Assembly (NCBI GenBank): GCA_002440745.1
Contig: DJVB01000046.1
Location: 14,593 to 78,592, forward strand
Reading direction: 5' to 3'
DNA length: 64,000 nucleotides
DNA from: Bacteroidales bacterium UBA6267
GTDB lineage: Bacteria > Bacteroidota > Bacteroidia > Bacteroidales > UBA1556
Under the pieces are notes generated by a model that worked only from the letters and a program-made list of their open reading frames with translations, was not told where the DNA came from and made no database searches. Position 1 is the first letter of the stretch. Each line of letters starts with the position of its first letter. The translations under genes and the position numbers were made by a program. Of this stretch, positions 50,570-56,809 are shown in pieces.

Positions 50570-50884
50570 TTACTCATCCAATGTTTTGTAGTATGATAAT
50601 ATTTTATTTACGAAGAAATTTCCGAATTGATCCATATCATAGATGATATACCATGAGGTTCGCTTATTCCTACGATATTGGAAGACCTTTTTACCATGTT
50701 TTTTATGTGAAGAATATTTACAATTAAAATGATAAGTTTTTTTTTCAATATTATAACATTGTTCAACTAAATCGTCAATATAAGTATCAATAAAAGATTT
50801 TGTCAGTTCAATTTTTTCCCATGAAATTAGACCATCAATTATTTTTTCTAAATCCTCAATAACTTGATTATTTATGTAAACCAT
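50570..50884 (-). CDS. hypothetical small protein, possible RelE/ParE-fold toxin
   Basis: Start taken at the ATG at 50884 (MVYINNQVIEDLEKI...). C-terminal 'RTSWYIIYDMDQFGNFFVNKI' is reminiscent of ParE-type beta-strands. It overlaps the upstream small ORF by 17 nt. Confidence 0.3.
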   Translation of the reverse strand: MVYINNQVIEDLEKIIDGLISWEKIELTKSFIDTYIDDLVEQCYNIEKKTYHFNCKYSSHKKHGKKVFQYRRNKRTSWYIIYDMDQFGNFFVNKILSYYKTLDE

Positions 50885-51074
50885 GTTGTTTAATCTTATC
50901 AAAGATTCTTTCCTTTGCCAAAACTCTAAATTCTTCAAGTGTAATATAACCTTCAGGAATGCCATCAGAAGAATTAGAGTTTTCGAACTCAACCGTTTTA
51001 GGATGTTTTCTCAGTTCCCTTATAAGTCTTTTGCCGGTAGGCGTTTCCGAATTGATTTTTACAGTTACTTGCAT
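50868..51074 (-). CDS. hypothetical small protein, possible antitoxin partner
   Basis: 68 aa from the ATG at 51074 (MQVTVKINSETPTGKRLIRELRKHP...). Placed upstream of, and overlapping, the 105-aa ORF. Confidence 0.3.
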   Translation of the reverse strand: MQVTVKINSETPTGKRLIRELRKHPKTVEFENSNSSDGIPEGYITLEEFRVLAKERIFDKIKQHGLHK

Positions 51075-51418
51075 AATAGGCGTCAATCTTGATTTAAAGC
51101 ACAAATATACGCAAACTATGTTGTATTCCTAATGTGATTTATTTCAAACTAATAATTTTAATAATCGTTTGATAAAATTCACCTTAAGTTGACACTATAA
51201 AACTTAAACAAAAAACATATCATTCTGATTTACAATATCCTCTCTTGAATAGCAATCCATCTATTGTTAAAAGTGATTTGTTTGCCAAAACCTTGAGGTA
51301 TCTCCCACGTTAGGAAACAAGGTTAAAATCCTAATTATCGAAAACAATTTGATTTAAAACATTCCATATTATTCCATATCTTAGCCGATTAAATTCCTTA
51401 ACCCTAAAACCACAAATC

Positions 51419-52231
51419 ATGAAAGAAGAAAGTCATCTCAAATCCAATGGTCATTTGAAGAATAGTTTTTATTTGGAGGAATTAAAGCGCCTTCAGATTG
51501 AATTGGTTAAACTTCAGGAATTTATCAAGGCTAACAGCTTGCGTGTGGTGGTGATATTTGAGGGGCGCGATGCTGCCGGCAAAGGTGGCGTAATTAAACG
51601 CATCACCGAAAGACTTAACCCTCGCATTTGTCGCGTTGTGGCATTGGGCACCCCGACAGAAAAGGAGAAAACGCAATGGTATTTTCAGCGATATGTGCCT
51701 CATCTGCCGAGTGGTGGCGAAATGGTTTTATTCGACCGATCATGGTATAATCGTGCAGGTGTGGAGCGCGTTATGGGTTTTTGCACAGACGACCAATATT
51801 GGGAGTTTTTGCGGAGCTGCCCAAACTTTGAACGGATGTTGATACGTAGCGGAATGATTCTTATAAAGTACTGGTTCTCAGTTAGCGAAGAAGAACAAGA
51901 AAAGCGTTTTCAGTCGCGGCTTCACGACCCCAGCAAACGTTGGAAACTCAGCGACATGGATTTGAAATCGAGAGAAATGTGGGTGGAATACAGCCGCGCA
52001 AAAGATGAAATGTTTAGCTATACCGATACGAAAATTTCGCCGTGGTATGTGGTCAATGCCGACAACAAACAAAAGGCTCATTTAAATTCCATCAGACATA
52101 TTTTAAAGATGATTCCTTACGAAGATTTAACACCGCCCCCAATCGAGCTTTCGCCACGTCCGCACGCAAAAGGCTATGTGCGACCACCAATCCAAGAGCA
52201 AACATTTGTTGAGGATTTCTATAAAGCTTAG
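51419..52231 (+). CDS. ppk2: polyphosphate kinase 2
   Basis: 270 aa. Walker A 'FEGRDAAGKGGVIKRI', 'FDRSWYNRAGVERV' and 'KRWKLSDMDL' are PPK2 hallmarks. Confidence 0.9.
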   Translation: MKEESHLKSNGHLKNSFYLEELKRLQIELVKLQEFIKANSLRVVVIFEGRDAAGKGGVIKRITERLNPRICRVVALGTPTEKEKTQWYFQRYVPHLPSGGEMVLFDRSWYNRAGVERVMGFCTDDQYWEFLRSCPNFERMLIRSGMILIKYWFSVSEEEQEKRFQSRLHDPSKRWKLSDMDLKSREMWVEYSRAKDEMFSYTDTKISPWYVVNADNKQKAHLNSIRHILKMIPYEDLTPPPIELSPRPHAKGYVRPPIQEQTFVEDFYKA

Positions 52232-52379: not shown

Positions 52380-53633
52380 TTAGGCTTCGTGTTTTTCATT
52401 TACTATTATTATTCCATTTACTTGTTGCTTAAATATTTCTTTTTCAATTAGAATCCTAATTGCAACAGAAACTACTTTATTTGAGAGGCCGAGTTTTTCA
52501 GCTAATTTCTTGTGAATACCTTTTTCCCATGGCTGTTCGGGAAGATTTATTCTAATTAATTCTAAAGTCTCATCATCAATGTGAATTAATTTTCCTTTTC
52601 TTTTTAATTTCTTTTTTTGTCCAACATCATCGCGAGGGGTTTCAACATTTTCAACCAGTTTTAGGTTAATTATTTGTTTTTTCTTGGCATATTTGAGATG
52701 AGAATAGTATGCTTTTACTTGTCTAAACGAACCTGCTATTATTATATCTAATTCATTCTCAGATAATAGAATTTTATCAACCAAAATATTTTTTAACATT
52801 TCAAATTCATCATTAACCCAAAATTCAAAATCTGTGTTTAAGAATTCAAGTTTTAATTCAGGTTGTAGAATTTGAATATTGTATTTCACTTTTCGTTCAA
52901 ATGATGATTGTTGAATACTTGAAATTGATAATTCATTAATTTTATTTAAAACTAATTCATTCGTTCTTTCAGCAAATACATTTATATCTTTTAAACAAGT
53001 TTTTAGATAATTCTCATCGACCGATATACCAACTTTATTAGAGATATTATATTTATTTCTGAAATGAGTGTCCGTCCTTCCTAATTTATGAATAATTAAA
53101 TGTCGAATTTCGTGATATTCAATCATTTTTTGTTTACCCGGAGGAATATGTAATAAATCAATATTTAATTTTTTCTTATATGTTTTTATAATTTCAGTAA
53201 AACCTCCTGATGAAAGATTCCGGCACTCCTTATTTATAATTATATTAAATAAATCGGAAGTGCTTTTCAATGATAAAAGCTGAGCTTGATTAAAAGTATG
53301 CACTTTAGATTGTTCTTTAAATGGAACTTTTGTAATTATAAAAATGTCTCTAAAAGCATCAACAAGAAAAACTTCTAATGCTGAAATAGCTCTAACCAAG
53401 GTTTGTTGATTTAGTGTTTTCTCAAGACTTGAGATACTGTTTTTATTAAAGCTACATATTCCACTGGGTTTAGTGTTAAAGCCATTATCATCAAGAAATT
53501 CTTTATGATGTATATTTTTTTGAAATTTTTTCAATTCTCCAACTTTATTAAAGGCATACATTGTAGAATTTAAAAATTTTCTTAATTCTTTAATTTCAAC
53601 TTCAAAGATTCTATATGATTTAAGTTTTTCCAT
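52380..53633 (-). CDS. orphan HEPN-motif protein with C-terminal wHTH-like segment (putative RNase toxin / defence protein)
   Basis: Start taken at the ATG at 53633 (MEKLKSYRIF...). 'YHEIRHLIIHKLGR' fits the HEPN R-x4-H motif. The preceding helical region ('AISALEVFLVDAFRDIF', 'GGFTEIIKTYKKKLNIDL') resembles RiboL-PSP/Abi-type HEPN. The C-terminus 'IHKKLAEKLGLSNKVVSVAIRILIEKEI' is HTH-like. The DNA is very AT-rich. Confidence 0.45.
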   Translation of the reverse strand: MEKLKSYRIFEVEIKELRKFLNSTMYAFNKVGELKKFQKNIHHKEFLDDNGFNTKPSGICSFNKNSISSLEKTLNQQTLVRAISALEVFLVDAFRDIFIITKVPFKEQSKVHTFNQAQLLSLKSTSDLFNIIINKECRNLSSGGFTEIIKTYKKKLNIDLLHIPPGKQKMIEYHEIRHLIIHKLGRTDTHFRNKYNISNKVGISVDENYLKTCLKDINVFAERTNELVLNKINELSISSIQQSSFERKVKYNIQILQPELKLEFLNTDFEFWVNDEFEMLKNILVDKILLSENELDIIIAGSFRQVKAYYSHLKYAKKKQIINLKLVENVETPRDDVGQKKKLKRKGKLIHIDDETLELIRINLPEQPWEKGIHKKLAEKLGLSNKVVSVAIRILIEKEIFKQQVNGIIIVNEKHEA

Positions 53634-53807
53634 ATTTGCATTGACATGAAGCACAACGAATGTATATCCACCTTTATGGCGGCTATTTCGTATTTAGTTG
53701 AAGTTTGTATATTCAGTTAATTCCTTGTATCTTAAAACTTTATCCGTTTTGAAAATCTTACTTTTGGTTTTCTCCATAGTTCGTAGTTTGATGTGATGCG
53801 ACTAAAA

Positions 53808-54138
53808 AATTCAGCAGCAAATATAGTTATTATCATTGTTGTCCGATAATATTATATTTAGTCCCTACGGGACTTTCTACCAAATCGTAATATCCTTTCT
53901 ACCAATATTTTGTCCCAAACGGGACAGCCCTGTTAAGGGCTAAATATTGGTAGAAAAAAAGTAACCCAAGAAATTCCAAAAGTCCCGTAGGGACGAGATA
54001 TTTCTGGTGTTCCAGCAAATTTCAAGGTTTTTTATCGGACAACAATAAATTACTATTTCAAAACCGGAGGAAAATCAGGAAGGAAGATTTGCTGAATTGG
54101 TTGAAATTTAAACGGAACTCAATATTTCCTGCTTCCTG
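53808..54138. repeat. multiply nested imperfect palindrome (candidate structured RNA or MITE-like element)
   Basis: Arm pairs: 53808-53822/54087-54098 (12 bp plus a 3-nt bulge); 53835-53849/54032-54046 (15/15); 53861-53873/53982-53994 (13/13). A further pair is 53896-53910/53942-53956 (15/15). Central hairpins are gtccc-aaac-gggac (53912-53925) and agccct-gtta-agggct (53926-53941). An extra pair lies at 54076-54082/54132-54138. Confidence 0.85.
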
Positions 54139-54198
54139 TGACTTTCGGGAAAAAGGGATATTCGAGAATTGTGAAGGTTAGTTACTGTTTGGTCGTTT

Positions 54199-54609
54199 TT
54201 ACTCTACTTTACTCCAATCCTCAATATACTCAACCCCTTCATCAAAGTAGTCAAAGGTCAATGCGTTGTTCGAAATACGAAAATTATACAATCTTTGTTT
54301 ACTATTATAACTAAACAAAATTGTACTGTCGGTATCTATTTCAAATTGCCCGATTGTTTCATACCCGGAGCCTACCCTTCTGAAATCCCCCTTTTGATCA
54401 TCAATGTTGTTACCGGTTGTAAATTCGAGGGTGTCATAATGGACTATCATATCAGTTATTCCATTTATTGTAAGTGCCTGTAGCCTCCAATTTCCCAGAA
54501 TGCCAAACTTCTCTAAATTGTCAGGCACTTCATTTTCTTTTTTCTCACAACTGGATAGTGAAATCAGTGAAATAACAATTAAAATCAATAAAATATTGGT
54601 TCGTAGCAT
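54199..54609 (-). CDS. lipocalin-like lipoprotein (hypothetical)
   Basis: Start at the ATG at 54609 (MLRTNILLILIVISLISLSSCEKK, with a lipobox). 'GILGNWRLQALTING' resembles the lipocalin-like G-x-W motif. Confidence 0.5.
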   Translation of the reverse strand: MLRTNILLILIVISLISLSSCEKKENEVPDNLEKFGILGNWRLQALTINGITDMIVHYDTLEFTTGNNIDDQKGDFRRVGSGYETIGQFEIDTDSTILFSYNSKQRLYNFRISNNALTFDYFDEGVEYIEDWSKVE

Positions 54610-54961
54610 CTTTATCTTAATTCGTAAATAAATCTTTGCAAAGGTATCTTGAACCCATTTAAAATTTGGTACATGGTGGATTATTATTAAGTTAATTTTC
54701 GATAATTTGTCTTTGAATTGCATATCGGATAATTAGCTGAATTTTAGTATTATACATATTGTGAACTTTTGTTTAGAATCTACTCCAAAGCTCTGTTTTT
54801 AAGGCAATTAGGTGCAATTTTAGCAGCAAATGTAGTTTTTTAACCAAACAGTTTTTAATTTATGAAGTTTTTTGAAGCCTAAAATCTTAAGGCAGCTCAA
54901 AAAACCAAGGTCGGTTTTTAAATTTCTCTTGGATAAAGGTCTTTTTTGAACTGCCTTAAAT

Positions 54962-56809
54962 CTAAATCTGTATTGCCAACTCATAAGCCATCGCAATGGC
55001 ATCCTGGGCTTTACCTACTTTTTGAGCATCACCGACAAAATAAATCTCCTTGCTTTCAAGCGATTCGAAGGGTCTGTACGATTGCATTCCGGCTGCTATG
55101 ATTATATGCTTAGCCTTAATCTCCTTTTCATAATCTTCGCCTTCGATATGTAAATAATCCCCATCAATTCGCGAAACTCGGGTTTTGGTATAAATATGCA
55201 TTCGCTCATTTTTAAAGGTATTCAATGTAAGCTTTTGCTCAATCATTTCCATTCCGCGGGCAATATCTTCAAGTATTTCAATAAGATAAACCTCATTTCC
55301 TCGACTTAACAACTTACTGGCAATTTCGGTCCCAATCAAGCCGCCTCCAATGACTGCTGTAGTGCTATTTTCAGGAAGGTTTTCATCTTGCAATACTTCA
55401 GCCCAATAAAATTTATCAAGTCCGGGAATTGGTGGAATCTTTGGCACTGCGCCCGTAGCTATCACTATTGGGGAATAGTTTGCCAAGATTTGCTCATCGG
55501 CTTGAATATACTTAATATCTATCTGATTATCAATCATTTCTTGTTTGTAGTAATCAATCAGTTTCTTAAGGTTTTCTTTGTGAGGCGGCAACCAAGCCAG
55601 ATTGAACTGACCACCTAAACTCTCTTTCTCGAACAAAGTCACCTTATGTCCGCGCTTTTTCAACGTCAATGCTGCTTCCATTCCTGCCAAACCTCCACCA
55701 ACAATGGCGATATCTTTGGAATCTTGAGCGGGCAGCAAATCGTTAAAACTTTTCCCAACAGTCGGATTCACAAGACATTGCAATCCTTTTCCCGATTTCA
55801 CTCCACCAAGACAACCTTCGGCACAAGCCAAACAAGGCTTATAATTTCCTTCCACTTCTTGGAGCAATTTTCCCACAAAATCAGGATCTGCGACAAGGGC
55901 TCTCCCAATGGCAAACATTTTTGCATCGTAGTTTTGCCTTAAAAAACTAATATCAGCGCGAGTATTTATTTGCCCGACAAAAATCACCGGCAGTCCAACT
56001 TCCCTTTGAATTCTATGACCAAACTCCCATGTTTTGCCCTTAGGCACAAACATGTGCTGAAAATACCACGGCGGCGTATTACATGCAGTTCCGGCTGACA
56101 CGTGCAAGGCTTCTACTCCTTTGGTTTTTAACATCTTACCTAATTCAATCATCTCATCCGTATGAATGCCATCAGGTATCATTTCGTCACCACTCAACCT
56201 GACTATCAACGGAATAGAAACAGCATTTTTCACAGCCTCCAACACTTCCAAACCAAAGCGGATTCTATTCTCAAAAGCTCCTCCATATTGATCTGCACGG
56301 TTATTAATTTTCTCGCTGATAAACTGTGAAATTAAGTAGCCATGCCCAAATTGCAATTCGATGATATCGAAACCGGAATCTTGGGCTCGAATTGCTGCCT
56401 GACGAAACAGGTCGATGGCCTGTTGAATGTCGTCTAAGTTCATTGCTTTAGGGGTAGCACCTCCGGCTTCGCAAGCTTGAGCAGAAGACGAAAGGAAAAT
56501 ATTTCCCGGAATCATCGGGTTGGCCATCCTCCCAGGATGATTGAGATGTGCAATAGCTTTAGCTCCGCCCTGATGAATAGTGGAGGTAAGTTGCTGCAAA
56601 CCAATAAGCTGTTCTGCACTGTCGATCCCCATCTGAGTAGGCAATTCGCGAAGACTGTGATGCAAATAAAAAGGCTCCGGCGTGATTGCTCCAACATATT
56701 TTGCTCTTTCAGCATAAAATTTAAGGTGTTTCTCGGTAACTCGCCCTGTCCCGTCGCTATAGCCGGTTTTTACAGGAGCCATTATAAAATCGTTTCTTAA
56801 GCCTAACAT
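54962..56809 (-). CDS. Old-Yellow-Enzyme-family NADH:flavin oxidoreductase fused to an FAD/NAD(P)-binding domain (2,4-dienoyl-CoA reductase-like)
   Basis: 615 aa. OYE TIM-barrel motifs ('HLNHPGR', 'GFDIIELQFGHGYLISQF', 'RLSGDE'), 4Fe-4S motif 'CLACAEGC', then two Rossmann GxGxxG motifs ('IAIVGGGLAGME', 'AVIGGGLIGTE'). Confidence 0.85.
   Translation of the reverse strand: MLGLRNDFIMAPVKTGYSDGTGRVTEKHLKFYAERAKYVGAITPEPFYLHHSLRELPTQMGIDSAEQLIGLQQLTSTIHQGGAKAIAHLNHPGRMANPMIPGNIFLSSSAQACEAGGATPKAMNLDDIQQAIDLFRQAAIRAQDSGFDIIELQFGHGYLISQFISEKINNRADQYGGAFENRIRFGLEVLEAVKNAVSIPLIVRLSGDEMIPDGIHTDEMIELGKMLKTKGVEALHVSAGTACNTPPWYFQHMFVPKGKTWEFGHRIQREVGLPVIFVGQINTRADISFLRQNYDAKMFAIGRALVADPDFVGKLLQEVEGNYKPCLACAEGCLGGVKSGKGLQCLVNPTVGKSFNDLLPAQDSKDIAIVGGGLAGMEAALTLKKRGHKVTLFEKESLGGQFNLAWLPPHKENLKKLIDYYKQEMIDNQIDIKYIQADEQILANYSPIVIATGAVPKIPPIPGLDKFYWAEVLQDENLPENSTTAVIGGGLIGTEIASKLLSRGNEVYLIEILEDIARGMEMIEQKLTLNTFKNERMHIYTKTRVSRIDGDYLHIEGEDYEKEIKAKHIIIAAGMQSYRPFESLESKEIYFVGDAQKVGKAQDAIAMAYELAIQI

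Follow-up and report, generated by a model that had tools for sequence, protein, structure and literature searches.

The nested palindrome that lies upstream of a HEPN-like gene in the window, as we call the whole 64-kb stretch of DNA analysed here, is very probably a non-autonomous DNA transposon, present here in one fairly old copy: a non-coding miniature inverted-repeat element (MITE) of the foldback type with a length of about 213 bp. A MITE is defined as a short non-coding unit that has terminal inverted repeats, target-site duplications and dispersed copies with unrelated flanks, and each of these properties was found here. The unit in the window is 214 bp long and holds no open reading frame (ORF) of 40 aa or more. 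A 15/15 inverted pair, which belongs to a 17-bp terminal consensus, is placed at its exact ends, and a step in sequencing depth coincides with them. The duplication has a constant length of 9 bp, is specific to each copy and is perfect in 16 of 31 copies, while the dispersed copies stand among unrelated flanks, 44 of them in 13 metagenome-assembled genomes (MAGs) and others on at least six metagenome contigs. The family is an undescribed member of this well-known class, and a full-text literature search returned no paper in which Lentimicrobi- and miniature inverted-repeat elements are named together. The initial annotation had offered a MITE with terminal inverted repeats among its readings, and it is this reading that the dispersed copies, their common ends and the 9-bp duplications bear out. 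The coordinates of the element, its parts and the two neighbouring genes are given in Table 1.

Table 1. Features of the element and its neighbourhood, with positions in the window
Feature	Position	Strand	Basis or remark
Foldback MITE, complete copy, non-coding, 214 bp	53834..54047	+ (orientation of family alignment A1)	Family profile, depth step
Left terminal inverted repeat CATTGTTGTCCGATAAT	53834..53850	+	Family consensus CATTGATGTCCGGTTAA
Right terminal inverted repeat TTTATCGGACAACAATA	54031..54047	+	Family consensus TTTACCGGACAACAATG; last base G>A here
Left 9-bp target-site duplication AGTTATTAT	53825..53833	.	7/9 match to right copy
Right 9-bp target-site duplication AATTACTAT	54048..54056	.	
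Hairpin 1, GTCCC-TAC-GGGAC	53861..53873	+	Stem nearly invariant in family
Inner foldback, 15-bp stem TTTCTACCAATATTT / AAATATTGGTAGAAA	53896..53956	+	Around hairpins 2 and 3
Hairpin 2, GTCCC-AAAC-GGGAC	53912..53925	+	
Hairpin 3, AGCCCT-GTTA-AGGGCT	53926..53941	+	
Hairpin 4, GTCCC-GTA-GGGAC	53982..53994	+	Complementary to hairpin 1
Small hairpin, CTGG-TGTT-CCAG	54004..54015	+	In right-arm extra segment of about 30 nt that has no left-arm partner
Neighbour gene, HEPN-like 424-aa protein (417 aa from ATG 53633)	52380..53654	-	Outside element
Neighbour gene, lipocalin-like lipoprotein	54199..54723	-	Outside element

Structure and extent of the palindrome

The palindrome had been described in the initial annotation as a unit of about 330 bp with four concentric levels of inverted repeats around two short GC hairpins, more than chance could produce. 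The inner three levels and both central hairpins were located in the sequence. The outer 15/15 pair (53835-53849 and 54032-54046) is perfect and encloses 182 bp; the inner 15/15 pair (53896-53910 and 53942-53956) is likewise perfect and encloses the adjacent GC hairpins 2 and 3. The remaining level is a 13/13 pair made up of GTCCCTACGGGAC and GTCCCGTAGGGAC, the segments of hairpins 1 and 4, which are both self-complementary and which lie within a 23-nt pair that is 91% complementary. The GTCCC/GGGAC stem was found three times in the element with differing loops, and the direct repeat that had been reported to occur twice was recovered as the 11-bp CTTTCTACCAA, starting at 53873 and at 53895.

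Folding of the interval 53790-54150 on both strands, a check proposed along with the original description, gave z = -8.7 for the plus strand and z = -10.8 for the minus strand relative to dinucleotide shuffles, none of which equalled the native sequence, and the statement that the inverted repeats exceed chance therefore holds. The 214-bp core (53834-54047), folded as DNA, had a z of -10.95, whereas the left flank (53634-53833, 200 nt; z = +0.09) and the right flank (54040-54205, 166 nt; z = -0.81) behaved like shuffled sequence, indicating that the fold signal is limited to 53834-54047.

The outermost of the four levels, described as a bulged pair of 12 bp, did not hold up. The candidate pair, TTCAGCAGCAAAT (53810-53822) and ATTTGCTGAA (54087-54096), consists of 8 perfect bp with 2 further bp across a 3-nt bulge; by our own arithmetic, chance alone would give about 0.4 matches of this kind in a comparison of a 179-nt with a 151-nt flank, and the pair was not formed in either of the minimum-free-energy folds of 53790-54150 (plus and minus strands). 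An outer stem was rejected as a level of the structure because it lies outside the element, is at chance level and is located in flanks that fold no better than shuffles. A right-flank hairpin at 54069-54147 was set aside for the last of these reasons. The structure is thus one of three nested levels with central hairpins, and it spans 214 bp rather than about 330 bp.

A dispersed repeat family in Bacteroidales

We scanned one representative genome per species with a pattern for the core double hairpin, GTCCC-N3-5-GGGACAGCCC-N4-8-GGGCT, and obtained 75 genome stretches. The homologous matches were all in MAGs of the Bacteroidales/Lentimicrobiaceae; the rest, most of which came from high-GC genomes, matched by chance. 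Analysis by BLAST, MAFFT and a profile HMM defined 44 related copies at 41 loci. Chromosome OZ223471.1 has at least 17 of these and OY781436.1 has 8-9, and the others come from a dozen draft MAGs. The presence of dispersed copies in other genomes, which had been named as a point to check, was thereby confirmed, and these copies are not linked to HEPN genes. Members of the family are about 210-220 bp long, share the ends CATTGATGTCCGGTTAA ... TTTACCGGACAACAATG as 17-bp terminal repeats and have a mean column identity of 75% in the family alignment. The profile built from this alignment matches 53834-54046 over model positions 1-212 of 213 (E = 6e-48). By the family profile, the element at 53834-54047 is the sole copy in the window, and neither this profile nor the pattern searches found a second one within the 64 kb.

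All of the family is built on one plan: in the left arm the terminal repeat is followed by an A-rich spacer, hairpin 1, a second spacer, CTACCAA and hairpins 2 and 3, and in the right arm TTGGTAG is followed by a spacer, hairpin 4, a segment of about 30 nt without a partner and the terminal repeat. The family consensus and the window copy each align with their own reverse complement over the whole length, which identifies the nested palindrome as the architecture of the family. It is built into all of the members and did not evolve for the window locus.

The nearest relative of the window copy is at another locus (L072; 87% identity), and identity to the median copy is about 68%; with its imperfect duplication and changed last base as well, the window copy is an aged and decayed insertion that belongs to a divergent subfamily. 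The full-length copies outside the window are intergenic in every case (30 of 30), with no overlap with an ORF of 100 aa or more, and the genes that flank the copies are found in tandem, convergent and divergent arrangements. Copies at different loci within one MAG are up to 99.1% identical, and identity of 99% between some loci of chromosome OZ223471.1 indicates that the family has been recently active in other genomes, as do the perfect duplications that accompany copies so alike.

The contigs of the source run (X1, a hydrocarbon metagenome) were also compared with the region. Depth was 10.2 to the left and 10.8 to the right of the element and rose to 55-135 strictly between 53832 and 54047, or 5-13 times the flanks; the copy number of the source genome is read from this metagenome contig depth, and the assignment of contigs to genomes is not certain. 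Six other contigs (12.2, 11.2, 4.9, 3.1, 2.7 and 0.9 kb; depths 7.3-10.5) share about 85-90% identity with the interval, each over part of it only, and then run on into unrelated sequence, and in the genome to which the window belongs, the assembly breaks at the centre of the element. Together, the depth step at the ends and the contigs with unrelated flanks reveal a dispersed repeat whose limits are set by the 15-bp inverted repeat. In three other metagenomes (cold-spring, wastewater and oil-facility), contigs from related strains run across both junctions, and these strains thus already carry the insertion seen in the window.

Target-site duplications and proposed mode of transposition

Direct repeats of 9 bp abut the ends of the element, and their sequence varies from copy to copy among the 31 copies compared (for instance AATTTTAAT, AAAGATAAT, ATTGAAAAT, AAAAGAAAT, TTTTGAAAT, ATTCGGAAT and GTTCTTTTT). 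With the perfect cases given above included, at least seven of the nine positions match in 27 of the 31 copies; in the control, flank 9-mers shifted outward by 10-30 nt matched at an average of 2.6 of nine positions, and only one of 155 reached seven. Insertion targets are rich in AT and show a loose symmetry of the form A-T-W...A-A-T.

The 9-bp duplications, taken together with general knowledge of cut-and-paste DDE transposition, point to a transposase that makes cuts staggered by 9 bp. Such an enzyme, encoded elsewhere and acting in trans, would recognise and bind both 17-bp ends, and the element would be inserted by the staggered cuts into an AT-rich 9-bp target, where repair of the gaps would leave the 9-bp direct duplication. 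The window copy has decayed since its insertion, as the imperfect duplication and the changed last base show (Table 1). We infer mobility from the duplications and from the near-identical copies at different loci; a search of the fetched loci for empty (pre-insertion) sites, carried out with the flanks of each copy joined, returned orthologous filled sites only.

With regard to a parent element, no paired terminal repeats at IS-like spacing were present in the 41 loci or in the 64-kb window, and a relaxed search for terminal repeats in all loci yielded only MITE ends and chance matches. When inverted-repeat pairs of any sequence with a spacing of 600-3500 bp were sought, nothing related came up, the terminal 17-mer was absent from viral contigs, and the consensus was absent from PLSDB plasmids. 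One of the chance matches, near a 402-aa ORF in locus L010, lies inside the coding sequence of a neighbouring 576-aa ORF; the 402-aa ORF itself has a Walker-A-like GKST motif and looks like a P-loop ATPase. A source contig that diverges after 53915 was considered as a lead to the parent transposase and was dropped, since a metagenome scan identified the diverging part as an unrelated short dispersed repeat.

The neighbouring HEPN-like gene

The gene on the left of the element had been annotated as a HEPN gene. Its 424-aa product is listed in the protein database in a 417-aa form that begins at the ATG at 53633, the probable start. The motif R177-x4-H182 is invariant in 31 homologs, which makes the assignment plausible, but it is weakened by the Pfam results: only four of the 31 homologs match HEPN_RiboL-PSP, at E ~5e-5 and below the curated cut-off, and the window protein does not match it. 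The only Pfam match of the window protein itself is a weak C-terminal winged helix. PADLOC had no match for the protein or its neighbours, and a PDB sequence search returned nothing useful. A HEPN-like protein with a winged helix is a reasonable but unproven description, which the invariant motif and the Pfam matches would suggest.

The element is not linked to this gene. A tblastn search with the 424-aa protein found no homolog in the 8-kb loci of the 44 other copies. Conversely, the protein has 65 database homologs, and on the contigs of those at 86, 70 and 69% identity, the upstream DNA (168-1030 bp) showed no similarity to the element; what is conserved upstream of these three homologs is only about 25 nt beside the start codon. 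The homologs have quite different surroundings, with for example an OLD-type TOPRIM ATPase and a UvrD-like helicase adjoining.

The further checks that had been proposed for a structured RNA were negative as well. An Rfam search of 53000-55000 at E up to 10 returned only eukaryotic miRNA and snoRNA families at chance level, none better than E = 1.7. The covariation term in a 30-sequence alignment was only -0.43 kcal/mol, with any double change in six of 34 pairs, and the stems of the family are maintained through sequence identity and not through compensatory change.

Conservation and replacement of the GC hairpins

Most of the invariant columns of the family alignment fall within the stems of the hairpins, within the CTACC/GGTAG stem or at the termini, and the near-invariance of the GC hairpins exceeds what a purely selfish, decaying element needs. 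In about 13 copies, hairpin 4 (GTCCC-GTA-GGGAC) is replaced by GTCCGCC-NNN-GGCGGAC with hairpin 1 unchanged, which shows that what is preserved is the local hairpin, not the long foldback. Four orthologous insertions are common to OY781436.1 and OZ223471.1, with the same duplications and with flanks that are 86-98% identical; at all four, the copy in OY781436.1 has the short hairpin 4 and that in OZ223471.1 the long one, and at two of the four the preceding spacer has also been swapped. Judged from these alignments, gene conversion among copies (concerted evolution) would be the simplest explanation of the replacement. The concerted change still leaves a little room for the hairpins to have a function. 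A separate rearrangement is seen in one family copy (L049), in which the central double hairpin is in the opposite orientation.

Local setting and possible side effects

The element occupies part of the 544-bp spacer between the lipoprotein gene and the HEPN-like gene, both on the minus strand, and it lies 151 bp downstream of the stop codon of the former and 200 bp upstream of the ATG of the latter. The initial annotation had suggested that a MITE might mark the border of an island; what is seen is a spacer beside the stretch of lowest GC content in the window (0.31 at 52-54 kb). A single Bacteroidetes-type -7 box (TAnnTTTG), TATATTTG (53825-53818), is present in 53600-54200 on the strand that carries the HEPN-like gene, and it lies 8 bp outside the left end of the element. 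Any -33 element of this box would consequently fall inside the terminal repeat, where there is no TTTG. A promoter scan gave promoter-like sites at the level of shuffles, and a terminator consensus scan gave none. The predicted fold of the 361-nt interval 53790-54150 has a free energy of -125 kcal/mol, and read-through from the lipoprotein gene, if it occurs, would give a transcript with a very stable hairpin. Any local effect of the element would probably be incidental.

Discussion

The palindrome had been proposed to be a structured ncRNA belonging to the HEPN-like gene, be it a leader, an RNA antitoxin, a sensor or a retron-like msr/msd, and its location, 200 nt ahead of the ATG and along the same axis of transcription, like its very stable predicted RNA fold, is what such an RNA would lead one to expect. 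However, the scattered copies have no homolog of the gene nearby, the outcome that the original description had itself named as refuting such a role, the homologs lack the element upstream, the Rfam and covariation results are as described above, 9-bp target duplications are present, and the first sequence-only reading had noted that no reverse transcriptase gene is nearby; we consider a dedicated RNA of this gene highly improbable. An inverton, in other words an invertible promoter segment, or else a site of cruciform recombination that is peculiar to the locus, the second of which had also been suggested, would agree with a perfect 15-bp inverted repeat around 182 bp upstream of a gene and with the inverted central hairpins of L049, yet it is hard to reconcile with an element that is dispersed and flanked by target duplications. 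No strand-switch joints were seen in four runs, a weak test in that contigs and not raw reads were used, and no recombinase gene is nearby according to the first reading; we regard this alternative as scarcely credible. A dispersed intergenic repeat that is rich in AT but has several short GC-rich hairpins is reminiscent of a REP/BIME or IS200/IS605-derived palindrome, which a tyrosine (HUH) transposase that recognises the hairpins would move as single-stranded DNA. However, IS200/IS605 and RAYT elements are not known to duplicate their target or to end in inverted repeats, whereas the present family has 17-bp terminal inverted repeats along with its 9-bp duplications, and such an origin is very unlikely.

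It is also conceivable, though improbable in our estimation, that the MITE has been co-opted, its GC hairpins serving as protein-binding sites, terminators or insulators, or RNA-stability elements, with the window copy modulating both flanking genes. The concentration of invariant columns in the hairpin and CTACC/GGTAG stems and the termini, the retention of a hairpin when hairpin 4 is altered and its partner hairpin 1 is not, the occurrence of the same replacement at four orthologous loci in two related MAGs and the intergenic position of all copies would fit a function of this kind, and effects on mRNA stability, as well as the ability to provide promoters, are known from other bacterial MITEs, Correia and ERIC among them. 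On the other hand, the consensus scan found no terminator-like site, no Bacteroidetes -7 box was recognised by eye in the family consensus, the copies occur in every orientation and gene arrangement, and the conservation is equally well explained by transposase binding or by recent spread with gene conversion. The more specific proposal that the four near-invariant GC hairpins are functional modules (sites for host or transposase proteins, terminators or insulators) that are kept uniform by directed gene conversion would draw on the like replacement of one hairpin at the four orthologous loci and is, in the same way, doubtful. If it were true, the window copy would insulate the HEPN-like gene from lipoprotein read-through or tune its expression.

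The main value of identifying the palindrome as a very probable foldback MITE is one of correction. A palindrome beside a putative defence or toxin gene tempts one to annotate a regulatory RNA or a system component, when it would instead be a transposon copy that landed beside the gene and not a dedicated component. With the family consensus, the ends, the 9-bp duplication and the AT-rich target defined, copies of the family can be masked in MAGs of the Lentimicrobiaceae/Bacteroidales, whose short-read assemblies they interrupt, with contigs that end in the element centre. Insertions that are common to genomes could be used as a strain-tracking marker, and the concerted hairpin change at orthologous loci offers a small case for the study of gene conversion in bacterial repeats.

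Comparison with known elements

The family resembles other bacterial MITEs, namely Correia/NEMIS of Neisseria, RUP of Streptococcus pneumoniae and ERIC/IRU of enterobacteria, in that it is short, non-coding, AT-rich and intergenic, has terminal inverted repeats, duplications of fixed length and dispersed copies, and can be folded over the whole element as RNA or single-stranded DNA. It has no sequence similarity to them and differs from them in its four conserved GC hairpins and in its Lentimicrobiaceae/Bacteroidales hosts; in addition, Correia and RUP duplicate TA, as opposed to 9 bp in the present family. A 9-bp duplication combined with terminal repeats of 15-20 bp is known from the IS4 group (IS10/IS50), the IS903 group of IS5, IS1, IS256 and ISAs1. 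These families are candidate parents, being alike in duplication length and type of end, but no transposase gene was found between ends of the present kind in the loci, the window, the viral contigs or the plasmids. REP/BIME and IS200/IS605-derived palindromes are similarly dispersed, intergenic and equipped with GC-rich hairpins; they are without terminal inverted repeats or duplications, both of which the present family has.

The MITEs of Porphyromonas gingivalis, a member of the same order Bacteroidales, comprise BrickBuilt, MITE239/293, MITE464/PgRS and MITE700, which are intergenic, non-autonomous elements with terminal inverted repeats and about 10-20 copies per genome (PMC4596501). Their ends, GAGACCTTTGCA, are of the IS5-family type and find matches in known ISPg elements; internally, these MITEs have tandem direct repeats, and their duplications are irregular or absent (PMC4596501). 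The present family shares with them the order of the host, the intergenic location, the non-autonomous nature and the terminal inverted repeats, but is distinguished from them by its ends, CATTGATGTCCGG, its foldback architecture, its regular 9-bp duplications and a sequence that bears no similarity to theirs.

Hairpin 4 at orthologous MITE insertions

Four orthologous insertions of the MITE, the ~213-bp foldback element that occupies 53834-54047 in the window, are common to OY781436.1 and OZ223471.1, two related complete MAG chromosomes. At all four of these shared sites, hairpin 4 (53982-53994 in the window copy) was GTCCC-GTA-GGGAC in OY781436.1, whereas it was GTCCGCC-ATR-GGCGGAC in OZ223471.1, and at two of the four the spacer adjoining this hairpin was also exchanged. 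Outside the hairpin and the spacer, the shared copies and their flanks were almost identical between the two chromosomes. This pattern looks like concerted evolution via gene conversion between MITE copies.

Orthologous MITE insertions shared by the two MAG chromosomes, one pair per line
One copy	Orthologous copy
L010:4969-5180	L028:3304-3513
L068:6436-6649	L016:133-349
L033:798-1011	L041:4415-4631
L043:5044-5257	L048:6303-6515

Rearranged, truncated and interrupted copies

In the MITE copy at L049:1984-2197, the central double hairpin was reversed in order and orientation relative to the arms, its centre reading AGCCCC..GGGGCT and then GTCCC..GGGAC, which suggests that the centre was inverted through recombination between the CTACCAA and TTGGTAG repeats on either side of it. 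The right end was missing from the copies at L065:2368-2826 and L006:3404-3575, both of which adjoined a different palindromic repeat, CCGCTTCAAGCGTGGACGCTTGAAGCGG; the L065 locus carried two truncated copies in tandem, 294 bp apart. On a 12,183-bp contig of the source metagenome run X1, which matches window 53832-53915, a MITE copy continued through hairpin 2's first arm and was then interrupted by ATTTCGGCAAGCTCAATGCACCGCC. This interrupting sequence is itself a short repeat that was present in unrelated metagenome contigs (L077, L079 and L081), and in L077 it lay amid tandem units resembling TTCGACAAGCTCAGC. Two mutually inverted arrays of ~53-nt periodic repeats (GTCATTCGGTGGTTGAGGGT-like), ~1 kb apart (L050:3000-4450), also emerged when IS-like inverted repeats were sought; they bear no relation to the MITE.

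Candidate promoter and neighbouring genes

Within 53600-54200, a single Bacteroidetes-type -7 box, TATATTTG, was found on the same strand as the HEPN-like gene (53818-53825, minus strand), 8 bp beyond the left end of the MITE and sharing 1 nt with the target duplication. If this box is the promoter, its upstream (-33) region was replaced by the MITE insertion.

Adjoining the PPK2 gene (51419-52231) were two overlapping small ORFs of 78 and 140 aa (50570-51104, minus strand), which had no Pfam or PADLOC match and whose arrangement resembles that of a toxin-antitoxin pair.

The 424-aa product of the HEPN-like gene (52380-53654, minus strand) belongs to a family of at least 65 members, distributed sporadically among Bacteroidales, Marinimicrobia, Rhodopirellula and Atribacteria, in which an R-x4-H motif is invariant and a winged helix lies at the C-terminus. 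In two loci (L084:3001-7248 and L085:595-4842), the homolog lay immediately upstream of a Gabija-like pair, namely an OLD-family TOPRIM ATPase and a UvrD-like helicase; this arrangement hints at a defence context.
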